Assembly (NCBI GenBank): GCA_045593885.1
Contig: JAZNXN010000033.1
Coordinates: 1,682 to 65,681 of the forward strand
From: Eubacteriales bacterium
Lineage (GTDB): Bacteria > Bacillota > Clostridia > Oscillospirales > CAG-272
DNA: 64,000 nucleotides
Reading direction: 5' to 3'
Of the stretch, positions 10,116-26,040 are shown piece after piece (positions within the stretch are counted from its first letter, which is position 1; the number at the start of each line of letters is the position of its first letter). The position numbers and the translations under genes were made by a program. The notes under the pieces were generated by a model that was not told the DNA's origin, did no database searches, and saw nothing but the letters and a program-made list of their open reading frames with translations.

Positions 10116-10158
10116 AAAACCGAACTGCATTTTTGCTTGGTTCGGTTTTTCTTTTTTT
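10114..10158 (+). terminator. Intrinsic terminator after GT28 gene
   Basis: AAAAAACCGAAC...GTTCGGTTTTT followed by T-rich tract. Confidence 0.8.
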
Positions 10159-10161
10159 CTC

Positions 10162-10208
10162 AAAGTCCCGTTTCCCCTTATTTTATCGGGGAAAATCGGG
10201 ACTTTTTT
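10162..10208 (+). terminator. Second tandem intrinsic terminator upstream of the virion cassette
   Basis: AAAGTCCCG-TTTCCCC...GGGGAAAA-T-CGGGACTTT-TTT. Confidence 0.7.
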
Positions 10209-10354
10209 GTCCCGAAATTTTGGTTACCAAATCAAGTAGCTTTTGTGGTAGAGTATTTATGCCGAGGAAAAAACGGGAAGCAAGGGCGGCAAAAAACTGC
10301 ACATTCGACAATCGAAAAGATATCCCGTTCGGTAATGAAAAGGGAGGTATAAGA

Positions 10355-10480
10355 ATGAAGGAAAACAGAAATCCGTACGCAACAAACGGCTCAACGGTCA
10401 GAGTCAATACTGCCGACACAAAGGAGCCGTGCAGTACCAAAATCTCGGGCAACGACCTGAGAATTAAGAAAGGAAGCTGA
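10355..10480 (+). CDS. 41-aa hypothetical protein, first gene of the cassette (MKENRNPYATNG...GNDLRIKKGS)
   Basis: Strong RBS GGGAGG at 10342-10347 before ATG 10355; stop lies 2 nt before the next ATG. ORF track over-extends it to 10133. Confidence 0.7.
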   Translation: MKENRNPYATNGSTVRVNTADTKEPCSTKISGNDLRIKKGS

Positions 10481-10482
10481 AA

Positions 10483-10959
10483 ATGGAAGAAGCAATAAAC
10501 GAAGCAGTATCGGAAAACACTCTCTCACCCGAGCTCGCGGCAGATAATTCAGAGGCTGTCGAGCTTGCAGAGGTATCACCTGAGATAAAAGACGCGGAAA
10601 ACGGCGACGGTGAGGAGATTTTTATACACGATGCCGAGAGCGACCTCTCGGAAATCAGGGAGATGTTTCCTCAGCTCGCAGACGTAAACGAGCTATCCGA
10701 GATAGAAAATTCCGAGAGATTCGTTGAGCTGCGCGCAATGGGACTGTCGGTAAGAGAGGCTCTGCTCGCAACAAACGGAACGGCAAAGGCAAGGGGTTCT
10801 GCATACGACAACCGCTCGCATCTGAAATCGTCAGTGCCGAAGGCGGGCGGAAGCAGCGGAATACAGATGAGCCGCGCTGAATTACAGGCGGCGAGAGATT
10901 TGTTCGGCACGCTGACGGAAAAGGAAATCAAGGAGCTCTACAAAAGAGTTCGTAATTAA
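10483..10959 (+). CDS. Putative capsid scaffolding protein
   Basis: Acidic disordered N-terminus, helical core and short helical C-terminal tail; immediately upstream of the capsid gene. Confidence 0.55.
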   Translation: MEEAINEAVSENTLSPELAADNSEAVELAEVSPEIKDAENGDGEEIFIHDAESDLSEIREMFPQLADVNELSEIENSERFVELRAMGLSVREALLATNGTAKARGSAYDNRSHLKSSVPKAGGSSGIQMSRAELQAARDLFGTLTEKEIKELYKRVRN

Positions 10960-10974
10960 GAAAGGAAATAATCA

Positions 10975-12012
10975 ATGTCAATCATTTATTCCAAGTCCTC
11001 AGGACTTAATAACGCACAGATAGGTAAGCTTGAAACACCTATCAAAATGGTAATAGAGCACGAGAGCGACCTCCTCACGAAGAGAGGCGGTATTTGCGAC
11101 TGGCTCTTCAACATCGAAAAGTCAAACAAGTTCGGTGAAACGATAATAGGTCAGAACGAGTTCGACGTATTCTCCGCTACCGCCGAGGGCGCAGGCGCTG
11201 AGAGCGACGACCTTCAGGAAACCTACAGAAAGTTTATCGAGCACATTCAGTTCATGAAGGAATTCACCATCACCGCTGAGATGATGGAGGATGCGGCGTA
11301 CGGAGTTGCCGCAGATGCAAAGCGCCGCGCAGAAAACTTCACCCGCGCATACTACAAGACCATGCACAAGATATGCGAGTATGCTCTCGCAAACGGAACC
11401 TCTACCACCGGTACGTTTGCAAAGGCGGAGCTTGACCTGACCGCTCCCGACGGTATGCCCCTCTTTTCAAATGCTCATAAGTGGGGCTCTGAGAGCAAGG
11501 CGAACGGCACTCAGTCCAACTACTTTTACGGAGATATTTTCTCCTCTACCGAAACCTTCGAAAACGCACTCGGTGAGCTTGCGTTCAAGATAAGAAATAT
11601 GAAGGACGAGAACGGCGATATTCTCGGCTACACCGCAGACACCATCATTCTCCCCGGCAACAGACCTGCCGCTGAGGTTATAGCAAAGAAGGTGTGCGGC
11701 TCGGAGGGCGCTCTCGGCAACGGCTACAACGACGTTAACCTTCAGTTCGGCAACTGGAACATCATCGTTATGCCCAACTGGCAGACCGAGGACAACCGCT
11801 GCATGATAATGTCGAGCGAGGCAAACAAGAATCTTTGCGGAAATATGTTCTTCAACCGCATACCCCTCACGGTTTCCAACTGGGTTGATAACCATACGGG
11901 CAACTACATCTGGAACGGCAGATGCCGCTTCGGCGTAGGCTTTGGAACCTACAAGCACATTCTTCTTGCTGTAGATTCGAGCGAGGCTGTAGAGGGCGCA
12001 GACGCTCTCTGA
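10975..12012 (+). CDS. Major capsid protein (HK97-fold, Mu gpT-like family)
   Basis: 345 aa; APDGMPLFSNAH motif, MKDENG.IL...ADTIILP, C-terminal GRCRFGVGF; strong RBS; codons look like those of highly expressed genes. Confidence 0.8.
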   Translation: MSIIYSKSSGLNNAQIGKLETPIKMVIEHESDLLTKRGGICDWLFNIEKSNKFGETIIGQNEFDVFSATAEGAGAESDDLQETYRKFIEHIQFMKEFTITAEMMEDAAYGVAADAKRRAENFTRAYYKTMHKICEYALANGTSTTGTFAKAELDLTAPDGMPLFSNAHKWGSESKANGTQSNYFYGDIFSSTETFENALGELAFKIRNMKDENGDILGYTADTIILPGNRPAAEVIAKKVCGSEGALGNGYNDVNLQFGNWNIIVMPNWQTEDNRCMIMSSEANKNLCGNMFFNRIPLTVSNWVDNHTGNYIWNGRCRFGVGFGTYKHILLAVDSSEAVEGADAL

Positions 12013-12023
12013 TAATCTAAAAA

Positions 12024-12069
12024 CGGCGATGCCGCAGCCGTCGCCGTAAGGGTGACGGCTGTGCCGCCG
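12024..12069 (+). promoter_or_regulatory. GC-rich hairpin after the capsid gene with no U-tract (likely mRNA stabiliser or attenuator)
   Basis: CGCAGCCGTCGCC-gtaag-GGTGACGGCTGTG, ending just before the RBS of the next gene. Confidence 0.6.
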
Positions 12070-12082
12070 AGAAAGGATAATT

Positions 12083-12625
12083 ATGACAGGCAAAGAACTT
12101 ATAGAACAGATAAAGGCACTCGGCTTTGACGGCGATGCTGACCCGACGGACAGACTGTACTCGGTGATAACGCTTTCTATGCGGCTGCTTGCCGCACAGT
12201 ACCCGAAAACCTCATCAAAGGAAATAGTTAAAAGCAAAGGCTCTGCCCTGCTGATAACGCCTGCCGATATAGAGGGCTGCAAGGAGCTTGCCCCCTATCC
12301 TATATTCAAGGATTTTCTGCCCTACAGCTCTGCCATAATACTCGACGGAGCGGCAATTATTCCAAGGGATGCGGATGGGGTATTCACCGTAAGATACATA
12401 GAGGACGTGCCCGCGTTTTCAGATGAGCTGTACGACGAGGAGCTTTGTCTCTCCCCGTGCGCTCAGCACCTCTTGCCTCTGCTCACAGCAGGCTATTTCT
12501 GGCAGGATGACGAGCCCGAAAAGGCAGACGTGTATATGCGGCAGTACGCAGAGGGGGCGCGGCTTTTACGCTCGCAGAGAGTGAAAAGCAACACTATCCC
12601 CTATCAATGCGAAGGCAACTGGTGA
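12083..12625 (+). CDS. Putative head-tail adaptor protein
   Basis: 180 aa directly after capsid; helical N-terminus, beta core ending VRY, then LLPLLTAGYFWQDDE...Y..Y helix as in podovirus adaptors. Confidence 0.55.
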   Translation: MTGKELIEQIKALGFDGDADPTDRLYSVITLSMRLLAAQYPKTSSKEIVKSKGSALLITPADIEGCKELAPYPIFKDFLPYSSAIILDGAAIIPRDADGVFTVRYIEDVPAFSDELYDEELCLSPCAQHLLPLLTAGYFWQDDEPEKADVYMRQYAEGARLLRSQRVKSNTIPYQCEGNW

Positions 12626-12630
12626 ACGGC

Positions 12631-15381
12631 ATGAGCAAAAAAAGAGTATACAGGAAAACCTATTCCTCCTTTTCGGGAATAGACACCTCGGCTCCCCCCT
12701 CTATGATTGAGGACTTCCGCATGGCAAATGCGGAGAATATGTACATAGATTACGAGGCGGGGCACGGGCTCATGCTCGAAACCGTACCGGGATTTCGTGA
12801 AATACACAATTTCAACGATAAGATATACGGAATTTTCCACTACCGCTTTTCCGACACCGAGGATGGCGGTAACGAGTACCTTGTTATTCACGCGGGAAGC
12901 AGTCTTTACCGCTTCCCTGTCGGAGAGCGGGATTTCATTGACACACCCGAACCGATAATGGTCGGACTCGCGAGGAAGCACTCATGCGCCTTTGCGGCGG
13001 GTGACTCGCTATATATTCTTGATTCCGAAGCCTATTACCGCGTTGACAGTGACGGCTACTGCAAAAGGCTGACGGATGAGGATGCCTACATCCCAACCAC
13101 AATGTATCGCGGTGAGGAGTGCGAGGGAAAAAATATTCTTACCGATAAATTCAGAAACGCATTTGTCCTGACAGATGCAACCGAGATGCTCGGAGATGAG
13201 AGCGAGTTTACCTTCGAGGTGATAAGCGAGGAGCTTTTAACCTGCCGCGTGACAGGAATGCTGGACAAGAGGCAGCACGTTGCCATTGTACCGTCAACGG
13301 CAACCATTAACGGAAAGAAGTATGCCGTTACGAGAATCGGTCCCAATGCATTTGCAAGCACCGATATTTCGCTGGTTTCTCTCCCCTCAACTCTCTACGA
13401 AATAGAGGGGCATGCGTTTTTTGGATGCAAAAAGCTTACCTGCGTTTCTCTTCCCGATAACATATGGTCGATAGACACGTATGCGTTCAGCGAATGCTCC
13501 TCTCTTTCCGAGGTGTATTTGGGCTCCGGGGTGTCGAAGATTTTCTTGGGAGCATTCTATGGAATAGCAAGCGATGCTACTCTATACTATAACGGCGATG
13601 AAGAAAAATTCAAAGGCATCAGTATAGACAATACACAAAATTATTTTAACTATACCCCCGTATATTCAACAAAGCAGCCGCAATACCGCTTCTTTTACCA
13701 CACCGTTTCAAGGGGATGTGTCAGCATAAGCTCGGTTAATATCGACGGAAACAGCGTAGCCGCCAACGATATGCGACCGAGTGTATCGTATGCGATACAG
13801 AAATCCGCAGTTGACGAGGTTGAAGGCATCTATATATGTATTAAGAGCGATGTTATCATAAAAAGCAGGGAGATAGAGGTTTTTGCAAAGTTCAATCCGC
13901 TTTTGGACAGCATTGCTGACCGCAAGAGCTTTTTCTCTGCACATCCCGAGTATACAAACGGCTTCTTCGACGCTATTGCAAAATGCACAGCGGCTGAAAT
14001 ACACGGAGAGAGCGTTTTTCTTACCGGAAATCCTCTGTTGCCAAATACCGTCTTCTATTCATCCAAGGATCTTGGCGGCTGCATGAATCCGTTGTATTTC
14101 GGCGCTCACAGCTTCATTGAGGATGGCATTGGAAACACTCAGAACGTGGCAATGATCAGCGCCGACGAAACCCTGGTCGTTATAAAATCCGAGGCAAATC
14201 ACGGCTCCTCGGTATATTATCACACCAAAAAGAGTGAGGGCGAGGACGGCGAGGATGTCTATTCAAGAGGTCAGAGCTCCGCCTCAATAGGCAGGGTGCT
14301 GGCGGCGGCAAATTTCCTTGACGACCCTGTTGTTTTCAGCGATACAGGTCTTTTTGGAATAGACATAGATAACGTAAATCTCGAAAGAAGCATTAACCGA
14401 CGCTCATCAAACATTGATTCGGTTATGTTAAAGGACACACTCTCAAGCGCAAGGCTCGCCGAATGGCTCGGATATCTGTGCGTGCTCATCGACGGAGAAA
14501 TATATCTTGCCGACAGCAGAGGCAGATTTACTCACCGTTCGGGAAGCAAGGAATACGAATGGTTCAGGCTGACGGAAATAGGCGTTTTCGAAGGTCAGCA
14601 CACCGTGTATTTCACGCTTACAGAGCCAAAATCCGAGCACACGCATATCACGTGGAACGGGATTGACTGTCCCATAGTGTACGACGGTGAGGAGCGAGAG
14701 GTCGGCTCTGACGGAGAGCTTATATCGACCTATCCTCTACCTGCGGACGAAAATCCCACGGCCTATCCGTTTTTGCTCACAACCGGTGAAAGCGGAGAGC
14801 CGTTGGCGGTGGCGTGTGACACCCGAGGCGAGTTATCGGGCGGTGAATTTTCTCCCGCTTGCGAGCTGTGCGCGGTTGGTGAGCTTCTGTTTTTCGGATG
14901 TGAAAACGGAAGTATCTGCTGCTTCAATAACGACAAAAGGGATAAAACAACCGACGATATTTCCGTTTTTGGCAGAATACCGCGAAAATACTACACGCAC
15001 AACGGACGAAGATACCGAAGCGGATTTTCTACCGCATCGGATAGCTGTAAGGAGCTGGGCTCGGCAAAGAGCACCGTTCCGAAAAGCACCGTAATAAGAC
15101 TGAGAGCCCATTCGGGCAGCCGTTTGCACGTAGCGATACTCACGGACAGAAACGGACGGCAAAGGACCGAGGAGATAAACGCAGGAGCGTTTGACTTCTC
15201 TGACACCGATTTCTCGGCATTATCGTTTGCTACTCACGAAAACGTGTCGATTGTCATTCCCGAAAAGGAGAAAAGATGGTCGGAAAAGCAATACGAAATA
15301 TATACAAACGATTTTATGCGGCCGTTTGGAGTTTACGATTTATCGTATGACTACACAGTCGCGGGAAGGATTAAAAAATGA
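12631..15381 (+). CDS. Tail nozzle/DNA-stabilisation-like protein (P22 gp10/T7 gp12-like) with inserted BspA-type LRR domain
   Basis: FSGID...AENM....L.TVPG N-terminus, propeller-like repeats (VFLTGNP..PNTVFYS), C-terminal PFGVYDLSYDY; IG.NAF/IE..AF.GC..L..V.LP repeats at ~13280-13560. Alternative start at 12607. Confidence 0.6.
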   Translation: MSKKRVYRKTYSSFSGIDTSAPPSMIEDFRMANAENMYIDYEAGHGLMLETVPGFREIHNFNDKIYGIFHYRFSDTEDGGNEYLVIHAGSSLYRFPVGERDFIDTPEPIMVGLARKHSCAFAAGDSLYILDSEAYYRVDSDGYCKRLTDEDAYIPTTMYRGEECEGKNILTDKFRNAFVLTDATEMLGDESEFTFEVISEELLTCRVTGMLDKRQHVAIVPSTATINGKKYAVTRIGPNAFASTDISLVSLPSTLYEIEGHAFFGCKKLTCVSLPDNIWSIDTYAFSECSSLSEVYLGSGVSKIFLGAFYGIASDATLYYNGDEEKFKGISIDNTQNYFNYTPVYSTKQPQYRFFYHTVSRGCVSISSVNIDGNSVAANDMRPSVSYAIQKSAVDEVEGIYICIKSDVIIKSREIEVFAKFNPLLDSIADRKSFFSAHPEYTNGFFDAIAKCTAAEIHGESVFLTGNPLLPNTVFYSSKDLGGCMNPLYFGAHSFIEDGIGNTQNVAMISADETLVVIKSEANHGSSVYYHTKKSEGEDGEDVYSRGQSSASIGRVLAAANFLDDPVVFSDTGLFGIDIDNVNLERSINRRSSNIDSVMLKDTLSSARLAEWLGYLCVLIDGEIYLADSRGRFTHRSGSKEYEWFRLTEIGVFEGQHTVYFTLTEPKSEHTHITWNGIDCPIVYDGEEREVGSDGELISTYPLPADENPTAYPFLLTTGESGEPLAVACDTRGELSGGEFSPACELCAVGELLFFGCENGSICCFNNDKRDKTTDDISVFGRIPRKYYTHNGRRYRSGFSTASDSCKELGSAKSTVPKSTVIRLRAHSGSRLHVAILTDRNGRQRTEEINAGAFDFSDTDFSALSFATHENVSIVIPEKEKRWSEKQYEIYTNDFMRPFGVYDLSYDYTVAGRIKK

Positions 15382-16250
15382 GCATAGAAAAAATAAGCGA
15401 AGCGGAGTTTAAGCGCGCAAGCGTGTCCTCACTGCCGACAAGGCCTAATTCGGGCTCGCTGTACGGCGGAGCCTCACTTTCGCCCACAGAGCTGAAGAAT
15501 GCGTTCGATAAAGCTCCTGCGCTGATTATGGCCAAGCTTAACGAGCTGATAGACTCAATAACCTCAGTCGCGGACAGCGACGGACATATTTCCGGGCAGC
15601 TGCTGACAGGGCTTGCGGACGGACACACACTCAAAAATCTCTTTGAGGATATCGTGAGTGGCGAGCTGTCGAAATATCTGTATGTCGAAAATGACACCTT
15701 ATATGGCAAGATTCACGCCGTCGAGGACAGGCAGGGCTCTGCCATATCGAGCATAACCTACGATGTTGCGAATAATCGCATTGCGTACAAGAGCCTTGAC
15801 GGTGTGGAATACTCGTTTTCTCTCGGAAAGGGCGGAATCAACGATTACGTTGAGGAGAAAAAGCTTGAAATTGACAGCTTCATCGACGAAAACCTGAACG
15901 GCTTTCGGTACGTTGATTTTGAGGGGGCTGATGCAACCTTCTGCATAGAAGCAGACACGGAGTGCGCGCTCACAAACTTTTCCTCGCTCGACATAGCAAC
16001 GCCCCCCTCCGTAGAGCCGGGCTTTTGCTCAATCGTTCATCTGACGGTTTCCGATTCCTCCAATATATATATTCCTGCTTGGGCAAACACGTACACTCAA
16101 AGCCAAGGAGTAACCGAAAAGGAAATCGTCTATCTTGGAGATGATGTTTCTTCAGGAGCGGTATCTTTGTGTGACGGATACAGATACACCCTCTTTTTCA
16201 TTCACGACGGAGAGGCGCTCACCTGTACGGTCAACAGAAGGGTGGCATAA
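15378..16250 (+). CDS. Putative tail fibre/spike protein
   Basis: N-terminal VSSLPTRP...LSPTELKNAFDK..I.AKLNELID anchor-like segment and beta-rich C-terminal domain; ATGA overlap with the upstream gene. Confidence 0.45.
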   Translation: MSIEKISEAEFKRASVSSLPTRPNSGSLYGGASLSPTELKNAFDKAPALIMAKLNELIDSITSVADSDGHISGQLLTGLADGHTLKNLFEDIVSGELSKYLYVENDTLYGKIHAVEDRQGSAISSITYDVANNRIAYKSLDGVEYSFSLGKGGINDYVEEKKLEIDSFIDENLNGFRYVDFEGADATFCIEADTECALTNFSSLDIATPPSVEPGFCSIVHLTVSDSSNIYIPAWANTYTQSQGVTEKEIVYLGDDVSSGAVSLCDGYRYTLFFIHDGEALTCTVNRRVA

Positions 16251-17228
16251 ATGCTAAGACTCAAAAACCGAAAGCTATACAGAAAAAAGCCGAAGGATAG
16301 GGTGGAAATAGGGTATGAAAAAAGCGAAAGCGGCTTTCATGCCGATTGCAAAAACGCAACCGACTGCGCGGTAAAATCTCTGGAAATTACAGGAGCTCGC
16401 TACAATTTCATAGCATCGCATCCCATAACCGACGCAAACCACGCCCATTACGGAGAATACGAAACAACCGTTGCAATCGCAGGAAAAAACTGCATAAAGC
16501 AGATTGGCGAGAAAACCCTCGAAATACCTGACCAAAGCGCAAAAAATCACGGCATTATAGGCTTTGACAAATGGCGTTCTATTTTCTATAACAGATACTA
16601 TTTTATATCCTTTGATTACGAAATAGAACCCTTCGATGACGGAACGGTTCCGCCCGTATACATGACCTTCGCCTACGGAAAATTATCGTCACCCCTTGAT
16701 TATGTCATACAGTATAACGGAACACCATCTCACATAAATCCAAACGGCGAAGCCTCGTCAAGCTTCTCGGTTATTCTGATAAGAGTTTCATACACCGAGT
16801 ACACTACAGGTGCACCTCTGCTCAAATTCTATTTCAACGCTCCGTCGGAGCAGGCAATGACGGGCAACGGAAAAATAACCGTCAAAAACGTCGTTTGGAG
16901 CGAGGTTCAGGACTGGGGAAAAACCGAAAGCGCAGACGATTTCGTTGAGGAAAGGATAGTTCAGAATTTCTACACCGAGCAGCCGATAGCCTCTTGCGCT
17001 ACGGCATCGGACGAGGTGTCAATCGAAGCCTCGACGGGCAAAGTCAAGATAATCAAGAAAACGGCGTATAAAGACAAAACCGTCTATGAAATAGACACCC
17101 CCTATGAGATAACTATACCGACGGACACGCCGATAATGCTAAGGGCAGGCGAGCCGAACAGAGTTTATCTGAAATCGCCAAGTCCCCCCTTGAGCATGAC
17201 TGTAAAATACTTTTCAAGCGTGAGGTAG
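16251..17228 (+). CDS. Putative receptor-binding/tail accessory protein
   Basis: Beta-rich, aromatic-rich 325 aa with xGKNx motif; AT-richer central segment; located in the tail module. Confidence 0.4.
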   Translation: MLRLKNRKLYRKKPKDRVEIGYEKSESGFHADCKNATDCAVKSLEITGARYNFIASHPITDANHAHYGEYETTVAIAGKNCIKQIGEKTLEIPDQSAKNHGIIGFDKWRSIFYNRYYFISFDYEIEPFDDGTVPPVYMTFAYGKLSSPLDYVIQYNGTPSHINPNGEASSSFSVILIRVSYTEYTTGAPLLKFYFNAPSEQAMTGNGKITVKNVVWSEVQDWGKTESADDFVEERIVQNFYTEQPIASCATASDEVSIEASTGKVKIIKKTAYKDKTVYEIDTPYEITIPTDTPIMLRAGEPNRVYLKSPSPPLSMTVKYFSSVR

Positions 17229-17233
17229 CAAAT

Positions 17234-17455
17234 ATGAAGTACTACAAGCTTATAAACAAGGGGAGAGTGGTAGGGGCAGACGAAAAAATCTCTCTTTTAT
17301 CAGAGGAGAGGGCACGCGAGCTCGGCTACTATCCCCTCAAGCACGGTGTTCTGCCGAGCGAGGCAACCGACAGCTGCTGCACTATAATCACCTACACTCA
17401 GGAGAGTGACTGTATAAGAGTGAATTTCAATATGCAAGGAGATAAGATACAGTGA
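17234..17455 (+). CDS. 73-aa hypothetical (tail-fibre-associated)
   Basis: RBS GAGG; ELGYYPL motif; overlaps the next gene. Confidence 0.5.
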   Translation: MKYYKLINKGRVVGADEKISLLSEERARELGYYPLKHGVLPSEATDSCCTIITYTQESDCIRVNFNMQGDKIQ

Positions 17456-17853
17456 AATACTTACTTTTTCCGGATATGAGCGGATACGCGGTTGATAAAA
17501 CCGAAAAAATCAAGGGCGGCCTAATCAGCGTCAGCTTTGACGGAGTCAGCCGCGGAACTCTGTTCATATCCGATGCGGCCATACCCATAACTGACGGGTA
17601 TGCGGCTGTAACGGCACGCGACGTGTCCGAGGGCAGAAACCCCGTCAGCGTTTTCAAGGAGCACAGCAGAGAGAGCTTTGACTGCGGCTATATCGTGAGA
17701 AGCGGCAATACCCTCTCTGCCGAGCCTGAGGATACGCAGCGGGATTTCATATACCTCAAGCGTGAGCTGTACGCGGAGAGAAACGCGCGCCGCTCGCTCG
17801 AAAAGAGGATTGCCGGCCTCGAGGAAAAGATAAACGGCTACAAAATTTTTTAG
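17452..17853 (+). CDS. Hypothetical protein with C-terminal coiled coil
   Basis: RBS AAGGAG, GTGA overlap; RRSLEKRIAGLEEKI heptads. Confidence 0.6.
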   Translation: MKYLLFPDMSGYAVDKTEKIKGGLISVSFDGVSRGTLFISDAAIPITDGYAAVTARDVSEGRNPVSVFKEHSRESFDCGYIVRSGNTLSAEPEDTQRDFIYLKRELYAERNARRSLEKRIAGLEEKINGYKIF

Positions 17854-17863
17854 GAGATGTATT

Positions 17864-18472
17864 ATGAAGAAAATACTTATATCATTAATTATTGCGCTGA
17901 CGCTCCTTTTCTCTCTCGGAGTATCCGTATATGCAGAGGAGATAGACAACGCAGTCGCTGAAGCCGAAAGCACCGAGGCTGCACCGACAGAAGAGGACAC
18001 GGTGAGTGGACAGCTCTCCTCGCTCCTTTCGGATAACATAACCGAGATATTCAGCGTACTCACGCTGGTGAGCTCTCTCTTCGTCGCATTCCTTTACAAG
18101 AAGGGGCTCTTGCCCTCGGTGAGCAAATCGCTCGGACTGATAAACGAGAGCACGGGCGCCGTTCTGAAAAGAGTATGCGAATACTCGGAGAGCACGGATA
18201 CCGCGATAAGCGAGCTTGCAAGGAGTGCAGCCCCCGTGCTTGAAGCAATATCAAGCTTTACCGAAATGGCAGAAAGGATTTTTGCCGACAGTGAAAGGCT
18301 CGCAGAAGATCTGTCCCAGGTCGGCTCGGACACCGAGAGGCTTCAGAAAATAATCTCGATGCAAAACGAAATGCTCTACACCGTCTTTATGTCGGCAAGC
18401 ATTCCTCAGTATCAGAAGGACGCACTTGGCGAGGTCTACTCGAAGATAAAGACTCTTACAAAGGAGGGCTGA
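17864..18472 (+). CDS. Membrane protein with signal peptide, TM helix and cytoplasmic coiled coil
   Basis: MKKILISLIIALTLLFSLGVSVYA signal; IFSVLTLVSSLFVAFLY TM helix; RBS AGGAG. Confidence 0.7.
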   Translation: MKKILISLIIALTLLFSLGVSVYAEEIDNAVAEAESTEAAPTEEDTVSGQLSSLLSDNITEIFSVLTLVSSLFVAFLYKKGLLPSVSKSLGLINESTGAVLKRVCEYSESTDTAISELARSAAPVLEAISSFTEMAERIFADSERLAEDLSQVGSDTERLQKIISMQNEMLYTVFMSASIPQYQKDALGEVYSKIKTLTKEG

Positions 18473-18476
18473 TACC

Positions 18477-18830
18477 GTGAGGGGCGGCGTAATAAAAATA
18501 TGCCTGCGGGTGCTGGGGCTATTTCTCTCCACCGTGCCCGCAGCGGTAGCGGTGCTTGAGCATTTTCCGATATGGATAGGGGCGGGAATACGCCCCGCCC
18601 TGTCCGCTATGTCGGTGATTATGCTGGCGCTGGCGGCAGTGCCGCTGAAAAGAGTGATTGCCAGATATCTTGAAAGTCCGTCGGCGTGGATGCTGTGGCT
18701 GGTGATATGGGCAATTACAAGCCTGCTTGCAGGAATAATAGAAAGTATCGCGAGCATAGCACTGGTTGCGTTTGTGGGAAACGCGCTGGGTGCTGTATGC
18801 TTCAGAATAGCAAAGGGAAGGGATAGTTAA
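18477..18830 (+). CDS. Small four-TM membrane protein (holin-like size)
   Basis: 117 aa, almost entirely hydrophobic; RBS GGAGG. Confidence 0.6.
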   Translation: MRGGVIKICLRVLGLFLSTVPAAVAVLEHFPIWIGAGIRPALSAMSVIMLALAAVPLKRVIARYLESPSAWMLWLVIWAITSLLAGIIESIASIALVAFVGNALGAVCFRIAKGRDS

Positions 18831-18831
18831 G

Positions 18832-19725
18832 ATGGAAAAAGGCTTTGACGCATGGCAAGCGGCGAACAGGCTCGGCGAGAGCACGGCGGAAAGGGCGAGG
18901 CGCGGATTCGGTGAATACGTGAACGAGATATGCCTTGCGGTTTGTATACTGTTCACGGTAGCAATACCGCTCGTTACCGTACAGTTCGTAAATCCCCTCT
19001 CCACAGAATTTCTGGCAAACACCGTGTATATGGCAATATCCACCTACACCTGCTACCTCGTATTCATTCCAAGCGGAAAGCGCGACGAGCTGGCAGCGAG
19101 CAAATACACGGGCAAGGAGGTCTGGGAGAGACTGTGTGATAAAATACGCGACGGCGCTATGATTTCAAAATTCTGTGCCTATTGCGAGAGCGAGTCAGAG
19201 AGGGAGAGACGTGAGAGGGTACGCCGCCTTGCTGCTGAGGCGTACATAGAAAGTGACAGATATTTCTCATTCTTCGCCCCTATGAAAAAAGGAGAGCTAC
19301 GCACCGAGCTGCGTGAGGAAAGGATAACTAAGGAGCAGTACAGGCTTCTTTGCCGCGCGCTCGCGCAAAGGCAAAAACCTATATCCCCTGCCCTGATTCT
19401 GTCCTCTGCACGCGAGATAAACATAAATGACGTTGGAAGGAAACGGCTGTCATACGAGCAGACCGCCGCGATACGAAAGCCATTTCTGATACTTCTTACC
19501 TCGATGTCGCTGGCGTGTGCGGTGCTCGTACCGACAAACACCTTTGGCGTTGCCGTGGTGGTCAGCATTATAAGCAGAATTTTCGGAATATGTATGGCAT
19601 CGTTTGCAGGCTACAACGTAGGCGTGCGGCAAATACGGTGGGAAAACAGTCGCATTGACGGAAGAATCCTTTTTCTCAAGAAATTTCTCGAAAGCGTTGA
19701 GAGCCATGAAAAAGTTCAAGAGTGA
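18832..19725 (+). CDS. Four-TM membrane protein with large charged loop
   Basis: Two TM pairs flanking an R/E-rich helical loop; overlaps TerS. Confidence 0.65.
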   Translation: MEKGFDAWQAANRLGESTAERARRGFGEYVNEICLAVCILFTVAIPLVTVQFVNPLSTEFLANTVYMAISTYTCYLVFIPSGKRDELAASKYTGKEVWERLCDKIRDGAMISKFCAYCESESERERRERVRRLAAEAYIESDRYFSFFAPMKKGELRTELREERITKEQYRLLCRALAQRQKPISPALILSSAREININDVGRKRLSYEQTAAIRKPFLILLTSMSLACAVLVPTNTFGVAVVVSIISRIFGICMASFAGYNVGVRQIRWENSRIDGRILFLKKFLESVESHEKVQE

Positions 19726-20065
19726 ATACACAAAAAAGCTCCTTGACTACACCTCTCTCTGCCTCGGCAGAGAGAACCGTATGCGCGAGCTTCTGCGCGA
19801 CGGACTTCCCTCTCTCGAAAAATTTGCGTTTTCGATAAACGTGACAAGAGAAACCCTCGATTATTGGGCGGGCAAAAAACGCGAGTTTTCGCTCGCCCTC
19901 GCCGAGGCAAAGGCAAGAATAAACGATATTATAACAGATGCGGCGGCATTCAAGCTCATAGACCCCACCTTCGTTAAGTTTTTGCTGACCGAGGTATACG
20001 GCAAAGGCGAGGGGGATATAGAACAGGGACGTCCGTTTGAAGTGAATCTTACGGTGGTGAAGTGA
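19706..20065 (+). CDS. Putative terminase small subunit
   Basis: PSLEKFA..INVTRETLDYW...EFSLAL..AKARI HTH-type signature; directly upstream of TerL; ATG at 19706. Confidence 0.65.
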   Translation: MKKFKSEYTKKLLDYTSLCLGRENRMRELLRDGLPSLEKFAFSINVTRETLDYWAGKKREFSLALAEAKARINDIITDAAAFKLIDPTFVKFLLTEVYGKGEGDIEQGRPFEVNLTVVK

Positions 20066-21426
20066 TGGATATATCAGTCAGCGAAAAGCAATACCTTTTC
20101 ATAACCTCAGAGCATACCGAAACTCTTTTCGGAGGGGCGGCGGGCGGGGGAAAATCCTACGGTCAGCTCGTTGATGCTATGCTCTACGCGCTGAAATACC
20201 CAAAATCAAAGCAGCTGATACTGCGGCGCACCTACAACGAGCTTGAAAAATCGCTGATACGCGTGAGTCTTTCGCTCTATCCGCGTGAAATCTACTCCTA
20301 CAACGCATCAAAGCATACGGGAGTATTCATAAACGGCAGTATTCTCGATTTCGGCTACTGCGCGACGGAGAACGACGTTTATCAGTATCAGTCGGCGGAG
20401 TACGACGTAATACGCTTCGACGAGCTGACGCACTTTACCGAGTTTCAGTACCTTTACCTCATATCGAGAGTAAGGGGTGCAAACGGCTACCCAAAAATGA
20501 TAAAATCCTCGACTAACCCCGGGGGTGTGGGACATTCCTGGGTGAAGGCACGCTTCGTTGACATAGGAGAGCCGAGCACGGTATATACCGACGTAGACGG
20601 GCGCACGCGCATTTTCATTCCTTCAAAGATTGATGACAACACCTTCCTTATGCAGAGCGACCCCGATTACAAGAAACGCCTGCTCGCACTGCCCGAAAAT
20701 CAGGTGAAGGCACTTCTCTTTGGCGATTGGAACATATTTGAGGGACAGTACTTTTCCGAGTTTGACTACTCGGTGCATACCGTGTCCCCCTTCGAGATTC
20801 CGTCGGAATGGCGGCGGTACAGAACTGTAGACTACGGTCTTGACAGACTGGCGTGCCTGTGGGTTGCAATAAGCCCCTTGGGCGAGATATACGTATACCG
20901 CGAGCTGTGTCAGAGCAATCTGATGATAAGCGAGGCGGCGGAGAGGATAACAGAAAAAACCGACAAGGGCGAGAAAATATATGCAACTCTTGCGCCCCCC
21001 GACCTATTCAGTCGCTCGCAGGAGTCGGGAAAAAGCAAGGCGCTTCTTTTCGAGGAAAACGGCGTGAGATTCACAAAATCCTCAAACGACAGAGAGGCGG
21101 GCTGGCTGTGCATAAAGGAGCTTCTAAAGCGGGATGCAAACGGCGAGAGCAGGCTGAAAATTTTCAGAACCTGCACCGAGCTGATAAAATGCCTGCCTAT
21201 GCTTGAAACAGACCCTTATAAGCCAAACGACACAAAAAACGAGCCGCACGAGATAACGCACGCGCCCGATGCTCTGCGAGGCTTTGCAATCTTTTATACA
21301 AGACCGAATGCAAAAGGAAACGCAAGGGTAAAAAGAAGCTGGAGCGAGGATATGTGGCAGGACTATTACTGTGCAGATGCAAAGGGGCGGGAATATTTGA
21401 TTAAAAAATACGGAGAACCGAAATGA
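20062..21426 (+). CDS. Terminase large subunit (Terminase_6-like)
   Basis: Walker A GGAAGGGKS, Walker B IRFDELT, STNPGG motif, nuclease VDYG and HAPDALR; all intact. Confidence 0.93.
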   Translation: MMDISVSEKQYLFITSEHTETLFGGAAGGGKSYGQLVDAMLYALKYPKSKQLILRRTYNELEKSLIRVSLSLYPREIYSYNASKHTGVFINGSILDFGYCATENDVYQYQSAEYDVIRFDELTHFTEFQYLYLISRVRGANGYPKMIKSSTNPGGVGHSWVKARFVDIGEPSTVYTDVDGRTRIFIPSKIDDNTFLMQSDPDYKKRLLALPENQVKALLFGDWNIFEGQYFSEFDYSVHTVSPFEIPSEWRRYRTVDYGLDRLACLWVAISPLGEIYVYRELCQSNLMISEAAERITEKTDKGEKIYATLAPPDLFSRSQESGKSKALLFEENGVRFTKSSNDREAGWLCIKELLKRDANGESRLKIFRTCTELIKCLPMLETDPYKPNDTKNEPHEITHAPDALRGFAIFYTRPNAKGNARVKRSWSEDMWQDYYCADAKGREYLIKKYGEPK

Positions 21427-23240
21427 AAACAGAAAGAAACGAAAAAAGACTCGAATTTTTCGAAAATCTCTACCAGAACGCAAAGAGCGAGCTTGGCGAT
21501 ATATACGACAAATTCGAGCAGAATACCGAGCAGTATTACGGCAGTGACAAAATAGACAACTCATACGAAAGAGCCGCAGCCGTAAGAAATATAACCTACG
21601 AGATAGTAGAGTCGCAGGTGTCCTCCGAGATACCCGCCCCCTACGTTTCCCCGAAAAGGTACAGCGAAAGGCGCGAAAGAAATGCAAGGAGCATAGAGCG
21701 CCTGCTCGCGCAGGTGAGAGATTCTCTGCCCTTTGAGCAGCTCAACGATATCGACGAAAGATATACCTACGTTCTCGGCGGTAGCGTATGGTTTGTCGAA
21801 TGGGATAGCAGTATTATCACCGGCAGAGAGCGCGGCGGCGTCCGCATTCACTGCATAAATCCAAAGGATTTCATACCCGAGCCCAACATTTTCAGAATAG
21901 AGGATATGGAATACTGCTTTATGAGATTTGACACCACGCGCTCCGACGTAATATCGCGCTACGGTGTCAGTGAGGACAATATACCCAAGCTTTCCTCAGA
22001 GGGCATTGGTGTTGACGAGGGCGCGGCGGCAACGGTTATCGTGTGCTTCTACCGAAATGAGTATGGACGCGTATCGCAGTTTTCCTTTTGCGGAGAGGTC
22101 ATACTGACCGACATTGAGGATTACTACGCAAGAAAGGTGCCCGTCTGTCCGGTATGCAACGAAAAAGGCGGTGTTTGCTCGTGTAATAAGGAAATGACAC
22201 TGACAGACGAGCTGTTCGAGTGTGTTTCTGCCGACGAAATTACAGATGACAGTGGCGAGCACGCTCAGTCGGACGGAACTGTTTTGCTGCCATACTACAC
22301 CCCCTCGTTTTTCCCGATAGTTATAAGGAGAAATACCTCGAAGGACCGCTCACTGATGGGACAGAGCGATTGCGAATTTATCCGCTGTCAGCAGCAACAG
22401 ATAAACAAAATTGAGAGCAGGATAATGCAAAAGCTCATGCGCTCTGGAATAACACCCATCGTGCCCGACGATGCCGAAATAGCCCTCAATAACCAGATAT
22501 TCGGTCAGGTCTTAAAGCTCCGTCCGAGCGAGAACAGCTCAATGTACGGCACGATAGACACAACCCCCGATATATCCCAGGATATTCAACAGGCAGACAG
22601 GCTATACGAGCAGGCAAAGAGGATAGTCGGAATCAGCGACGCATACCAGGGCTTTTCCGAGGACCTCGCTGCCTCGGGAGTTGCAAGACAGCTAATGGTA
22701 AACCAGTCGGCAGGCAGACTCGAATCAAAGAAAAATATGAAAAATTCCGCATATGCTGAGCTGGACAGAATAATCTTTTCGTACTACCTTGCCTACGCGG
22801 ACGAGCCGAGGGCGTTGGCATTCAAGGATTCCTTCGGCAGAATACACAACCTTCAGTTTGACAGACACGATTTCATCGAGTACGACCAAATCAGCGGCGA
22901 ATACTATTATGACGACGGATATATCTTCACCGTTGATAAGAGCAAGTCGGTAGAGCAGCAAAGAGAGTATATTTGGCAGAAAAATCTCGAAAATCTGCGC
23001 TCGGGTACGCTCGGCGACCCTCTCGCCCCCGAAACGCTTCTGCGCTATTGGCAATGCCAGGAAAGAGCGCATTATCCGTTTGCACGCGACAACGTTGAAT
23101 ATTTCAGCATATTGCTTTCACGCAAGGATAAAAATGAGGAAAAAAACCACAAAAACGGCGAAGGCGAAGGCGATGTGAGCGCAAGCGCAGCCGACAAGGC
23201 GGAGACACTTATTGCAAACAGCAAGGAAAGTACCGTCTGA
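21423..23240 (+). CDS. Portal protein (P22/podovirus-like) with Cys4 insert
   Basis: 605 aa after TerL; IVESQVSS.IP.P.V.P, ARSIERLL, FFPIVIRRN...SLMGQSD, GISDAYQG...ASGVA..L..NQSAGRL; CPVC...CSC insert. Confidence 0.8.
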   Translation: MKTERNEKRLEFFENLYQNAKSELGDIYDKFEQNTEQYYGSDKIDNSYERAAAVRNITYEIVESQVSSEIPAPYVSPKRYSERRERNARSIERLLAQVRDSLPFEQLNDIDERYTYVLGGSVWFVEWDSSIITGRERGGVRIHCINPKDFIPEPNIFRIEDMEYCFMRFDTTRSDVISRYGVSEDNIPKLSSEGIGVDEGAAATVIVCFYRNEYGRVSQFSFCGEVILTDIEDYYARKVPVCPVCNEKGGVCSCNKEMTLTDELFECVSADEITDDSGEHAQSDGTVLLPYYTPSFFPIVIRRNTSKDRSLMGQSDCEFIRCQQQQINKIESRIMQKLMRSGITPIVPDDAEIALNNQIFGQVLKLRPSENSSMYGTIDTTPDISQDIQQADRLYEQAKRIVGISDAYQGFSEDLAASGVARQLMVNQSAGRLESKKNMKNSAYAELDRIIFSYYLAYADEPRALAFKDSFGRIHNLQFDRHDFIEYDQISGEYYYDDGYIFTVDKSKSVEQQREYIWQKNLENLRSGTLGDPLAPETLLRYWQCQERAHYPFARDNVEYFSILLSRKDKNEEKNHKNGEGEGDVSASAADKAETLIANSKESTV

Positions 23241-23274: not shown

Positions 23275-23303
23275 TTGACAAATTTCAGCATTTATGGTAT
23301 CAT
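23275..23303 (+). promoter_or_regulatory. Sigma-A promoter
   Basis: TTGACA-17-TATCAT with TG extension. Confidence 0.75.
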
Positions 23304-23341
23304 TAAATTGCCAAAAATTGTCAAATACAGGAGAATTTCAA

Positions 23342-23527
23342 ATGCAACGCAATATGTACATAGAAAATTTTCTGAAAACAACTGATATAGAGAAGCTGTC
23401 GTTTGCCAGAACGAGAATTATACCCCTTATCGATGGGGCTCGGAGCACCGACACACTATGGCTGTGCGCGCTCTGCTACGAGCTTGGGCGCAGAGAATGC
23501 AATGAGTCGGAGAAAGAGGTTGAATGA
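23342..23527 (+). CDS. 61-aa hypothetical protein (monocistronic)
   Basis: Own promoter, RBS AGGAG and downstream terminator. Confidence 0.55.
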   Translation: MQRNMYIENFLKTTDIEKLSFARTRIIPLIDGARSTDTLWLCALCYELGRRECNESEKEVE

Positions 23528-23531
23528 CGGG

Positions 23532-23564
23532 GTGCCCCTTCAAGCTGTGAAGGGGCACTTTTTT
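23532..23564 (+). terminator. Intrinsic terminator
   Basis: GTGCCCCTTCA-agctg-TGAAGGGGCAC-TTTTTT. Confidence 0.85.
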
Positions 23565-23604
23565 ACTGAAAACCGAATAAATTTTACTTATTTTGACAAA
23601 GCAC

Positions 23605-23633
23605 TTGACATACCGCACCCTCTATGATATCTT
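23605..23633 (+). promoter_or_regulatory. Sigma-A promoter
   Basis: TTGACA-17-TATCTT with TG extension. Confidence 0.6.
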
Positions 23634-23673
23634 TAGGGTGGAACCACAAAAAACTTATAATGAGGTTTGGAAA

Positions 23674-26040
23674 ATGAGTATCATCAGGCATATTTCAGGT
23701 TCAATCAAGGGCGGTTATCTTTCGGTCATTACCGGCGATAACATGATGAAGGCGAAAAAGGTATTGCTCACCGATACGGCAAAAAACTCGTATGAGTGCG
23801 AGGTTCTCAACAAAACAGTATCCACCGCTACCTTCCGCGTGCCGAAGGGCGAATACCGCTGCTTTAAGGTCAAGGTTGTTTACGAAAACGGCGAAAGCAA
23901 CGAAATTGCTCTGAACTCACCTAAAATTCTTTGGGTGCTTGAAAACAGTCTTGTTTCGGGCGGAGAGCTTCGTGTTATAGGCGAGAGCCTTATAAATATA
24001 GACGTTTATGAGGAAAGAGAGGGTACAAGCACCAAGGGAGGATACGGAAGATATGCCGAAAACCGCGACACCCGTCTTATTCTCAGGGGTAAAAGCGATT
24101 ACGAGCTGAATATAAAGCGTATCAGCAATTACGAGGTATGCGCTGATATTCCAAAGGATATCGAGTGCGGTGAATACGACGTATACGTTATACGCGACTC
24201 GGTATCCGAGCCGTACAGAATAACGGTAAGAGAAAACATAGCTTATCCCGACAAAACATTCAACGTTTTGGATTTCGGAGCAAGGGCTATCCCTCTGCGC
24301 GACGTTTATTACGAGAATTTCTTTGATAGCGCTGACGCGTTTCAGGCGGCTCTCAATGCCGCGCGCGACAACGGTGGCGGAACTGTATTCGTGCCAAACG
24401 GACGCTACTGCCTCAAGAAGGGCATCCGCATATATCCTCACACAAGGCTCGTAGGCGAGGACAGCGACAGAGTCTGGATAGAAACACCAAAGGGAATGGG
24501 CGGCGAGGACGGCTGGGGTACCTTCACTGAGGGGCGCGCCATTTACGCCGTAATTGCAGGCGAGGACGGTGATTTCACTATTGAAAACCTGAATATCCTC
24601 ACAGTATATTCCCCTGCGATAATTATGGCTCCTATGATACACGGCGACCCTGTGCTCGGAGATGATACCTACAATTACAGGCCTCTCTACTCTAACCTCA
24701 TTGACGAGGGAAAGCACGCGGAAAATATAGTTATACGCAATTGCTGCCTCGTTCATCAGCCGACCTTTATCGGACAGAGGAAGAAGGCGGGAGACCCCTA
24801 CTATACAGGTCACTACAATAACCGAGATAAATACGTTGAGAATCCCACAGAGGGATATTTTGCGGCGCTCGAGCATTACAGCGCGATTGCCATTAAGGGC
24901 GACAAAATAACCGTTGAGAATAACAGAATCTTCGGTGCGGGCTCCTGCGTACGTCTGCTCGGCACACACAATGCAAGCCTTTCATCAAACGAGCTGTTCA
25001 GCGGAACTCTCGGTAACTGCTTCGGTATGTTCTCGCAGAATTACAACCCTAATTCAACCTGGGTACGTCAGGTAAATAATATAGTTATGGAAAATAACCT
25101 CATGAAGCCCATGACAGACAATGCACGCGGAACGATGTGGATAATGGAGGACCATTCCAACTACTATATGAGAGGCAACAAGCTCGAGCCGTTCTCCTAC
25201 ACGAGCGACAATGAGGGCTTCTGCTTCCACTATTGGGGCGAATATTACAGAATAAAGGCGCTCGGCGGTCAGCGCGAGATAAGGCTCAATATGGACAGTC
25301 TCATTGACCGCTATCCCGCATATAAGGGCAGAATTGCCGAGGGCAAGAAATTCATAAGGGACACCTTCAAGGATTGGTATTTCTACGTTACGGGCGGTAC
25401 GGGTGTATGCCAGATGCGCCGCGTCGTTTCAAACACAGAGGACACCCTCACCCTTGACGCACCCCTTGACTGCGAGCTTGACAGGAGCTCTATAATCTCG
25501 GTATCTAACGTTGCGAAGTTCACGAACAACATCGTTACCGACAACGAGGTTGGTGACCTTGGCCGCGGAGTTTACTACTGGGGCGGCTGCGTGGGCGCTA
25601 TTTCCGACGGAAATACCCTCTCGATGAACAGCGGTGTGCTCTACGAGGACCTTAGCATTAACTACGAATACAAGTGGCATTGGCAGAGTGCAGGCGCTAT
25701 GCTTGGACAGATAATAAACAACAAGCTCACAAAGCCACGCGGCTTCTGCTCAAACTACGGCGTTATCGGCGTCAAGTGCGGAACTCTGGCGGCAAGCTCT
25801 GTATCGGTCATCATCCGTTCAAACGTCTGTGAGGATGATTCGGTGCTCGTGGCTAAGCCGAAAAGAGATGCGGAGGACGGACTCAACTACGAGGGCATCG
25901 TTATGGAGAACAATATCTCTGTTGACTGCGAGATAGGAATTGAAACCTCGCCCGCCGTCGGCATAACGATTTCGAGCAACGAGTGCGTAAACGTTAAAGA
26001 GCCTATCGTGGGCGCAGGCGCGTGCGCGGTTATTCTTTAA
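23674..26040 (+). CDS. Pectate-lyase-superfamily right-handed beta-helix glycan-active enzyme
   Basis: FNVLDFGA..DSADAFQAALNAA...GGTVFVPNGRY motif and Asn-ladder repeats; start moved to ATG 23674 after RBS GAGG. Confidence 0.75.
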   Translation: MSIIRHISGSIKGGYLSVITGDNMMKAKKVLLTDTAKNSYECEVLNKTVSTATFRVPKGEYRCFKVKVVYENGESNEIALNSPKILWVLENSLVSGGELRVIGESLINIDVYEEREGTSTKGGYGRYAENRDTRLILRGKSDYELNIKRISNYEVCADIPKDIECGEYDVYVIRDSVSEPYRITVRENIAYPDKTFNVLDFGARAIPLRDVYYENFFDSADAFQAALNAARDNGGGTVFVPNGRYCLKKGIRIYPHTRLVGEDSDRVWIETPKGMGGEDGWGTFTEGRAIYAVIAGEDGDFTIENLNILTVYSPAIIMAPMIHGDPVLGDDTYNYRPLYSNLIDEGKHAENIVIRNCCLVHQPTFIGQRKKAGDPYYTGHYNNRDKYVENPTEGYFAALEHYSAIAIKGDKITVENNRIFGAGSCVRLLGTHNASLSSNELFSGTLGNCFGMFSQNYNPNSTWVRQVNNIVMENNLMKPMTDNARGTMWIMEDHSNYYMRGNKLEPFSYTSDNEGFCFHYWGEYYRIKALGGQREIRLNMDSLIDRYPAYKGRIAEGKKFIRDTFKDWYFYVTGGTGVCQMRRVVSNTEDTLTLDAPLDCELDRSSIISVSNVAKFTNNIVTDNEVGDLGRGVYYWGGCVGAISDGNTLSMNSGVLYEDLSINYEYKWHWQSAGAMLGQIINNKLTKPRGFCSNYGVIGVKCGTLAASSVSVIIRSNVCEDDSVLVAKPKRDAEDGLNYEGIVMENNISVDCEIGIETSPAVGITISSNECVNVKEPIVGAGACAVIL

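Follow-up and report, generated by a model that had tools for sequence, protein, structure and literature searches.

The closest described system is FpGTA of Faecalibacterium prausnitzii, a podovirus-like gene transfer agent (GTA) that was posted in 2024, published in 2026, and described as the first of its kind (Borodovich et al., Nat Commun 2026, PMC12946183). According to that paper, its genes run from the small terminase (TerS) through the large terminase (TerL), portal and scaffold to the capsid, its particles are roughly 40-nm, tail-less-looking capsids holding 8.4-8.9 kb of packaged host DNA, and it is near-ubiquitous within its genus. The same paper reports GTA-like packaging in several other gut Clostridia, from other families, for which the responsible genes were not found (PMC12946183). 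GTAs and viriforms are understood here as defined by Kogay et al. (2022, PMC9662315), and the literature searches made here returned, besides PMC12946183, no description of a comparable element in organisms like these. The locus considered below is a cluster of podovirus-type virion genes in a 64,000-nucleotide stretch of DNA, called the window, from a Eubacteriales bacterium (Clostridia; Oscillospirales; CAG-272; assembly GCA_045593885.1, contig JAZNXN010000033.1, forward-strand positions 1,682 to 65,681).

The window, which corresponds to positions 1682-65681 of contig C33 of our genome G000 (a 1.24-Mb assembly, 76% complete), carries 15 genes in an unbroken run on the + strand from 10356 to 23240. 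Their order is a small protein, a scaffold-like protein, capsid, adaptor, nozzle, fibre-like and variable genes, three membrane proteins, TerS, TerL, and portal, with 4-nucleotide overlaps at g07/g08, g10/g11, TerS/TerL, and TerL/portal. An earlier note, made from this sequence, had described the genes as uninterrupted, co-oriented and tightly packed, as the listing of open reading frames (ORFs) bears out, and had read them as a domesticated, host-maintained operon for a podovirus-type virion; every comparative test that it proposed came out in favour of that reading. Its statement that no podovirus-like GTA was known in Clostridia has been made outdated by the published account of FpGTA, beside which the present element would be another candidate, in an uncultured genus.

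The reading favoured here, to which we assign a probability of about 0.6, is that the late module of a podophage became fixed in the chromosome of the ancestor of the genus, lost the genes for replication, recombination and integration, and has since descended vertically under purifying selection as a GTA-like viriform. Domestication is strongly supported, and a GTA function, in which particles would package chromosomal DNA as the earlier note had inferred, is plausible by analogy. To our knowledge, no class of element other than GTAs and GTA-like viriforms maintains capsid, portal and terminase by selection. The number of known GTA gene clusters is very small, and FpGTA is the one podovirus-like example that we know to have been described.

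When the 15 genes and the adjoining g18 and g19 were scanned against Pfam, PHROGs, and NCBIfam, none matched a family of integrases, repressors, replication proteins or endolysins, and neither a toxin-like gene nor a regulator was seen in the element. NCBIfam, run on nine element proteins of no known family and on host gene h752, returned nothing meaningful. A search for flanking direct (att-like) repeats gave only short, chance-level matches around the element, and there is no tRNA in the window. The observation made in the earlier note is confirmed. The marks of a functional temperate prophage are lacking (att repeats, a replication module, a repressor, an integrase or recombinase), as are those of capsid-forming phage-inducible chromosomal islands and phage satellites (integrase, replication initiator or primase, regulator, and patchy spread, the spread being judged among species, where it is near-universal and structured by clade). 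Its base composition is host-like, with a G+C content of 0.496 against 0.483 for the genome (82nd percentile of 12.9-kb windows) and 0.57 at third codon positions.

Distribution, host co-divergence and selection

The genus is represented by 213 species genomes, of which 74 are of high quality (at least 90% complete, at most 5% contaminated). At a threshold of E <= 1e-100, TerL was found in 196 of all 213 and in 71 of the 74. Among the matches listed for those 196 genomes, TerL is an open frame with no internal stop. Three genomes without TerL and capsid (G362, G380 and G499; 91-96% complete) group together within the genus as a well-supported clade of the RpoB tree, as would be expected if the element had been lost once. 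A capsid scan of species genomes yielded 192 stretches; the best 80 are 75-95% identical, all of them from metagenome-assembled genomes of uncultured Clostridia and many on contigs of 50-390 kb. Record titles place the relatives' genomes mostly in animal-gut samples. Of 301 genomes drawn from the family, only those of this genus (8/8) had capsids at least 79% identical, and capsid matches of 28-56% identity occurred in 24 of 292 genomes of other genera, a patchy, phage-like pattern. A tblastn search of 50,697 phage records with the capsid returned five records, all below 30% identity, and there is no cultured relative. TerL relatives from other families (five loci, 36-49% identity) were set aside, since the element profiles matched only their TerL, and TerS in two of them, with no portal or capsid match; they are different elements.

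The arrangement of the element is conserved too. Among loci picked by family-based ORF assignment, 43 others contain the whole element, each on one strand, within 12.0-16.2 kb and in identical order: TerS, TerL, portal, c11, c16, scaffold-like, c10, capsid, adaptor, nozzle, g08, variable slot, g12, g13, g14. All 11 core families are present in 41 of the 43, and g08 is missing in two. When the types of flanking gene are mapped onto a tree of 61 element copies, each keeps to its own clade. Upstream, ABC-F runs through most of one major clade, while GroEL, DUF554/MiaB-like, MutS-like and other genes mark sub-clades of the other; downstream, MFS, DinG-like helicase and thioredoxin-reductase-like genes each mark a sub-clade of their own. 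Further housekeeping flanks across loci include an amino-acid ABC transporter and SDR, and a scan of 10 additional flank genes found eight from ordinary cellular families and no recombinase. The presence, synteny and locus checks proposed in the earlier note all favour its reading of a domesticated operon.

The window departs from the usual order. In it, in the sister species (L049/L013), and in L050, the block TerS-TerL-portal is placed after g14; the window and the sister species also lack c10 and c11, and L050 retains c10. Window and sister species share the same flanks, with protein identities of 42-95%. The window copy remains beside SDR and DinG-like helicase genes (31335-34626), which flank g14 in several other species, and ABC-F, which precedes TerS in 25 loci, is on a different contig in G000. 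Since the SDR and DinG-like neighbours are kept and ABC-F is elsewhere, the permutation is a local rearrangement, within the chromosome, of the resident element and not a new insertion. Two genomes, G009 (72% complete) and G022 (76%), lack TerL, portal and capsid, and the gene after their ABC-F is not TerS; they were rejected as clean empty sites, the ABC-F site being unoccupied in G000 too.

Co-divergence with the host was assessed by comparing a TerL+portal+capsid tree with two host markers, ABC-F (25 loci) and the unlinked RpoB (17 genomes). The element tree has 17 of 22 splits in common with the ABC-F tree (label shuffles: mean 0.13, maximum 2) and 7 of 14 with the RpoB tree (mean 0.30, maximum 4). 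RpoB of the sister species is 95% identical to that of G000, other congeners fall at 72-77%, and other families at 62-67%; the low identity among congeners marks the genus as deep. Capsid identity across the genus, at 59-95%, spans the same range as RpoB. The capsids of G007, G020, G003 and G015 (L019, L165, L020 and L163) evolve much faster than others, being 59-68% identical to that of the window as against ~80% in most.

Rates of substitution also speak for co-divergence. They were taken from eight species pairs, with gene pairs of length ratio below 0.7 skipped, saturated synonymous divergence (dS) excluded, and non-orthologous c19/c21 values ignored. In dS, the element genes are on a par with the host genes that flank them: between L103 and L106, ABC-F stands at 0.16 and TerL, capsid and portal at 0.14, 0.14 and 0.20, and between L085 and L099, ABC-F and MFS stand at 0.44 and 0.34 and TerL, portal and capsid at 0.35, 0.47 and 0.34. 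The ratio of nonsynonymous to synonymous divergence (dN/dS) is 0.02-0.45 for every element gene, with the sole exception of g03, whose value of 0.86 was computed on the over-long ORF 10133-10480. The genes are under purifying selection, the outcome that the earlier note had looked for from this comparison.

Several observations weigh against vertical descent of a domesticated, GTA-like operon. Seventeen of the 213 genomes of the genus have no TerL, the capsid was absent from all five of these that were checked, and one element-less genome, 86% complete, is nested within a carrier clade of the RpoB tree. The ABC-F marker is physically linked to the element. In an approximately unbiased (AU) test, the clade {G000, G014, G004, G011} of the element tree is incompatible with the RpoB data (p 0.006), and the element data weakly reject the RpoB placement of G004 (p 0.038) but not that of G000/G014 (p 0.17), the groups for these tests having been named after inspection of the trees. 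Capsid distances do not correlate with those of RpoB (r 0.03), unlike those of TerL (r 0.77) and portal (r 0.64); on the capsid tree, this lack of correlation goes with long branches in a few lineages and not with replacement by phage genes. The element and host trees, whose congruence the earlier note had proposed to check, are in large but not full agreement, with some conflicts at deep nodes. Furthermore, full-size phage relatives occur within the same genus, the family searches recognised no endolysin either within the cluster or next to it, and the particle is a prediction from the genes, its function being read by analogy.

Taken with these conflicts, the results fit a single domestication near the root of the genus, followed by vertical descent, occasional loss, and host-side rearrangement. 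Set beside the viriform definition, the locus holds caudovirus-derived structural and packaging genes in a chromosome and no replication or integration functions of its own; it evolves with the host genome, with the deep-node conflicts and the 17 absences remaining; and its genes are under purifying selection. The definition also calls for particles that carry mostly random host DNA, in pieces shorter than the encoding locus (12.9 kb here), and that bring it to recipient cells, with the host regulating their production; for the present element these are predictions.

Origin, proposed mechanism and alternatives

In the mechanism proposed for the element, a subpopulation of the host would switch the operon on, and the scaffold and capsid proteins would assemble a procapsid on the portal. 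TerS and TerL would then fill the procapsid by headful with available DNA. Because the locus cannot replicate or excise, the packaged DNA is proposed to be chromosomal. The adaptor, nozzle and fibre proteins would close the particle and give it a short tail, and the conserved membrane proteins g12-g14 may act in release (g13 being holin-like) and/or in DNA ejection. Finally, the particles would carry DNA to kin cells. Particle production, random packaging, the capacity of the capsid, and transfer are all predictions of this scheme.

The alternative that survives best keeps the particle and drops the transfer. A PBSX-like product of the host, which packages DNA but serves killing, competition, defence or some other host benefit, would fit all of the evidence for domestication equally well; the fast-evolving g08-g11 slot suits an arms-race surface function, and the FpGTA authors leave the same alternative open for their own system (PMC12946183). 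We nevertheless consider it unlikely. Few genes of the element are as constrained as TerS, TerL and portal, with dN/dS of 0.04-0.28, so that DNA packaging itself is under selection. A podovirus tail, being short, lacks the contractile machinery used for killing, and the family scans showed no toxin-like gene.

The origin of the element can be approached through its full-size relatives. Genome G004 holds the reduced element on contig C12 and a second, divergent copy on contigs C44 (L015) and C26 (L182). On C44, a transposase, a RecE-like exonuclease, RecT, a primase, a primase-helicase and a D5-like regulator lead into TerS, TerL (65% identity), portal and a 613-amino-acid (aa) gene. On C26, a 932-aa gene leads into scaffold, c10, capsid (51%), adaptor, nozzle, fibre, and g12-g14. 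In a 41.8-kb IMG/VR contig (L043), a 2597-aa gene stands ahead of that structural module. The capsids of these phage-type relatives are 51-56% identical to that of the element, and neither in the capsid tree nor in the TerL tree do the relatives fall among the element copies, all of which they branch outside.

The two kinds of locus differ ahead of the capsid. The scaffold-like protein is ~145-225 aa long in element copies versus 229-290 aa in phage copies, and the portal-scaffold interval of the element holds c11 alone (221-307 aa), or nothing in the window; the element also lacks the early module. Very large genes lie just upstream of the scaffold in L043 (489-8282, 2597 aa) and L175 (577-8292, 2571 aa); the 2597-aa protein belongs to phrog_14770, of unknown function. 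Nothing comparable to the two proteins occurs in the element. The c11 profile matches residues 152-295 of the product of the 613-aa gene of G004 and does not match the 2597-aa protein of L043, and c11 might conceivably be the stub of a giant phage protein.

Because related full-size phages share the genus, recombination between them and the element is possible, and the phage-type copy in G004 could have been a source of it. The stronger version of this idea, in which the element is still mobile, or is a helper-dependent, satellite-like or defective phage spread by its full-size relatives, is quite improbable. It would account for the second copy in G004, for some of the deep tree conflicts and the uncorrelated capsid distances, and for the 18 IMG/VR contigs that hold the capsid gene. 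However, the seven of these contigs that were checked all lack terminal repeats, the element has no integrase, excisionase, replication or regulator genes and no att repeats, its flanks are clade-specific with dS equal to that of the host, and its copies are monophyletic with respect to those of the phages. A functionless, decaying prophage remnant kept by chance, which the missing early half of the phage genome and the loss of c10 and c11 and rearranged module order in the window clade might suggest, is already contradicted and hardly credible, since 41 of 43 other loci retain every core gene intact, in species whose RpoB identity is as low as 72-77%, dN/dS is far below 1 for every gene, the element is present in 71 of 74 high-quality genomes, and a neutral remnant would be pseudogenised at such depth.

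Within the favoured reading of a domesticated, vertically inherited viriform, a more tentative possibility is that a podophage was turned into a GTA here independently and long ago, without shared descent with FpGTA, and was fixed at the root of a genus of at least 196 species; we hold this to be somewhat doubtful. If it were true, the ancestral type of phage would still circulate in the same hosts and provide a natural before/after pair. The steps from phage to GTA would then include the disappearance of the early module, the shrinking or removal of the very large pre-scaffold genes, and shortening of the scaffold from ~230-290 to ~160 aa, possibly setting a smaller capsid, with host-side reshuffling of the module order coming later.

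The cluster is a well-supported candidate for the kind of genes behind the GTA-like packaging reported in other gut Clostridia. If active, it would offer a standing route of gene exchange in the gut communities of a species-rich, uncultured genus. Furthermore, some 200 co-diverging copies together with free phage relatives make unusually good material on the domestication of phage genes, on gene retention and loss, and on the rate at which receptor binding evolves.

Genes of the cluster and their surroundings

Matches in Pfam or PHROGs were obtained for five of the 15 genes: the capsid, TerS, TerL, the portal, and g07, the last through its leucine-rich repeat (LRR) of BspA type. Of the labels proposed in the earlier note, capsid, adaptor, nozzle, the three membrane proteins, TerS, TerL and portal are now supported by tools, whereas scaffold and fibre derive from position and composition.

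The leader (10120-10355, + strand) follows the stop of the MGDG synthase gene and consists of two terminator-like hairpins (one scored at 10196-10215), a spacer, and the ribosome-binding site aagggagg; no promoter was identified in it with confidence. The first ORF was called from 10133. Since the hairpins, the spacer and then aagggagg precede the ATG at 10356, this ATG is taken as the start of g03, in agreement, to within one nucleotide, with the cluster start of 10355 given in the earlier note. The product of g03 (10356-10480) is a small basic protein of 41 aa that matches nothing in Pfam or PHROGs. It belongs to family c16, whose members elsewhere are 45-75 aa long and always lie immediately upstream of the scaffold-like gene. 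The scaffold-like gene itself, g04 (10483-10959), encodes an acidic protein of 158 aa (isoelectric point, pI, 4.5) and its family is kept in all 81 loci scanned; the position before the capsid gene and the composition point to a scaffold.

The major capsid protein is encoded by g05 (10975-12012) and has an HK97 fold of the Mu gpT-like/Phage_capsid_4 type (phrog_371, E 9e-7). PF25209 is precomputed on close homologues, and the ESM Atlas neighbours of one homologue (P0075) are exclusively viral Mu gpT-like/Phage_capsid_4 clusters; the window's own capsid is absent from that atlas. Its dN/dS is 0.02-0.10.

For the adaptor and the nozzle, sequence-profile searches of the PDB were uninformative, with no match for g06 and LRR proteins only for g07 (g14 likewise gave none below E 0.1), so fold prediction was needed. 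AlphaFold2 models were built from alignments of 17-18 orthologues and compared by Foldseek, and the fold check suggested in the earlier note confirmed both labels. The head-to-tail adaptor g06 (12083-12625; predicted local distance difference test, pLDDT, 88.6) matches the adaptors of KHP30, N4, DEV, GP4, SU10, crAss001 and T7 gp11 at E 9e-6 to 8e-3 and TM-scores of 0.34-0.58. The tail nozzle g07 (12607-15381; 924 aa; pLDDT 81.4) has podovirus nozzle or tail proteins as all of its top 24 PDB matches, at E 1e-19 to 9e-9, among them those of cyanophage A4, Kp9, T7 gp12, SU10 and P22 gp10. Inserted in the nozzle at about residues 197-350 is a BspA-type LRR domain (LRR_5, E 1e-16) that is present in all 18 aligned orthologues and whose best PDB sequence match is a cell-surface LRR protein of F. 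prausnitzii A2-165 (4gt6, E 1e-70). Nozzles do not usually carry an LRR, and the insert may be a receptor-binding or wall-binding module.

The genes that follow are the most variable. The N-terminal ~110 aa of g08 (15378-16250) are conserved and its C-terminal part varies, with a total length of 121-1124 aa across loci; position and composition suggest a fibre. The slot behind it, g09, g10 and g11 (16251-17853; 325, 73 and 133 aa), has no family matches and is occupied in other species by unrelated or unrecognisably diverged genes (c18, c20, c15), and its dN/dS against the sister species is 0.12-0.22. Three membrane proteins, recognised by hydropathy, come next. An N-terminal hydrophobic segment, one transmembrane segment and an acidic helical remainder make up g12 (17864-18472; kept in 58 loci). 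The 117-aa g13 (18477-18830; kept in 58 loci) has three hydrophobic segments and a basic C-terminus (pI 10.4) and is a putative holin-like protein. The 297-aa g14 (18832-19725; kept in 57 loci), also with three hydrophobic segments, closes the element where the gene order is the usual one.

The packaging genes complete the run. TerS, g15 (19655-20065), is P22 gp3-like (phrog_3064, E 8e-10; PF16677, E 8e-6, below the Pfam cut-off). TerL, g16 (20062-21426; phrog_979, E 6e-49), has a Walker A motif GAAGGGKS, D120/E121, and the nuclease aspartates, all invariant in 62 aligned TerLs, so that its catalytic motifs are as complete as the earlier note had stated. The portal, g17 (21423-23240), belongs to the SU10_portal type (phrog_156, E 8e-35). 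In many loci of the usual order, a small + strand ORF of 53-79 aa lies in the 300-500-bp spacer between ABC-F and TerS, for example at 4285-4446 in L122, 4884-5045 in L112 and 4394-4582 in L085.

The span 10356-23240 agrees with that of the earlier note, to which a separate unit behind the portal (23275-26040, + strand) is added with uncertain membership. A near-consensus promoter-like site (23275-23303, 11/12) stands ahead of the small g18 and of g19 (23593-26040), which encodes an 815-aa, tailspike-like protein with a pectate-lyase-like beta-helix (PF12708, phrog_2234). A search of 41 genomes found the unit as a strong match in G000 and its sister species G014 only; four of the 41 match the g19 unit in all, two of these only at E ~6e-4. 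It forms a transcription unit of its own, which may or may not be part of the element, and g19 could be a tailspike of recent recruitment or an unrelated enzyme acting on polysaccharides. Elsewhere in the window (49829-57017, - strand) are three tandem paralogues of 790-792 aa with a right-handed beta-helix, the first and third 50% identical; a paralogous relation of g19 to these genes was rejected, the match being weak and local (E 0.002).

Beyond the element, the neighbours are ordinary host genes, as the earlier note had described them: RecA, galactokinase, MiaA, OGG glycosylase and MGDG synthase upstream, and ABC exporters, an SNF symporter, SDR and the DinG-like helicase downstream. Only in the window clade is recA (2325-3422, - strand) an upstream neighbour of the element, at a distance of 7 kb, probably a coincidence of rearrangement.

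Comparison with known systems

RcGTA of the Alphaproteobacteria resembles the element in being a 14-17-gene cluster for head, tail and packaging, without replication genes, vertically inherited, under purifying selection and host-like in composition. It differs in being siphovirus-like, with a tape measure and tail tube, in having an HK97-type protease and lysis and accessory genes elsewhere, and in belonging to another phylum; none of the searches made here found a sequence relationship between the two. PBSX and PBSX-like elements of Bacillus are likewise phage-derived and chromosomal in a Gram-positive host, and PBSX packages host DNA and cannot propagate. In contrast to the element, however, PBSX is a killer particle with a myovirus-like contractile tail, a repressor and lysis genes, none of which was seen here.

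The architecture of portal, adaptor and nozzle, as judged by predicted fold, is that of T7, SU10, P22, N4 and cyanophage A4, with a portal of the SU10-type family. These are autonomous viruses, identities in the fold matches are only 7-16%, and the LRR insert on the nozzle distinguishes the element from them. The phage-type copy of G004 (C44/C26) and L043 share with the element both the content and the order of the structural module (scaffold, c10, capsid, adaptor, nozzle, fibre, g12-g14) and differ in their recombination and replication genes, their very large pre-scaffold genes (613, 932 and 2597 aa), and their longer scaffolds.

A sequence bridge to FpGTA was sought in the most distant capsid lineage that large genomes of the family yielded, L176 (TerL-portal-scaffold-capsid plus about five genes), and dropped, since the 10 protein clusters looked up for it include no Faecalibacterium name or FpGTA accession; the lineage looks like an ordinary phage because many of its members are on contigs of ~43 kb. 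In the published description, the genes of FpGTA fall into two operons ~125 kb apart, operon I with 10 ORFs in 10.5 kb and operon II of 5.5 kb, the second comprising baseplate, fibre, receptor-binding protein, holin and endolysin (PMC12946183). The present element is instead a single contiguous cluster of 12-16 kb and 15-17 genes in which no endolysin was recognised. Judged from the accession numbers quoted for FpGTA (capsid RCH50849.1, portal RCH50851.1), one gene separates its portal from its capsid, whereas up to four do so here. FpGTA has experimental support, and the present element, a set of genes, is likened to it through that description. The likeness is nonetheless extensive. Both belong to gut Clostridia, consist of podovirus-type genes without replication genes, and are nearly ubiquitous throughout a genus, and the order TerS-TerL-portal-scaffold-capsid followed by tail genes is also the usual order of the 43 loci, permuted in the window, L049 and L050.

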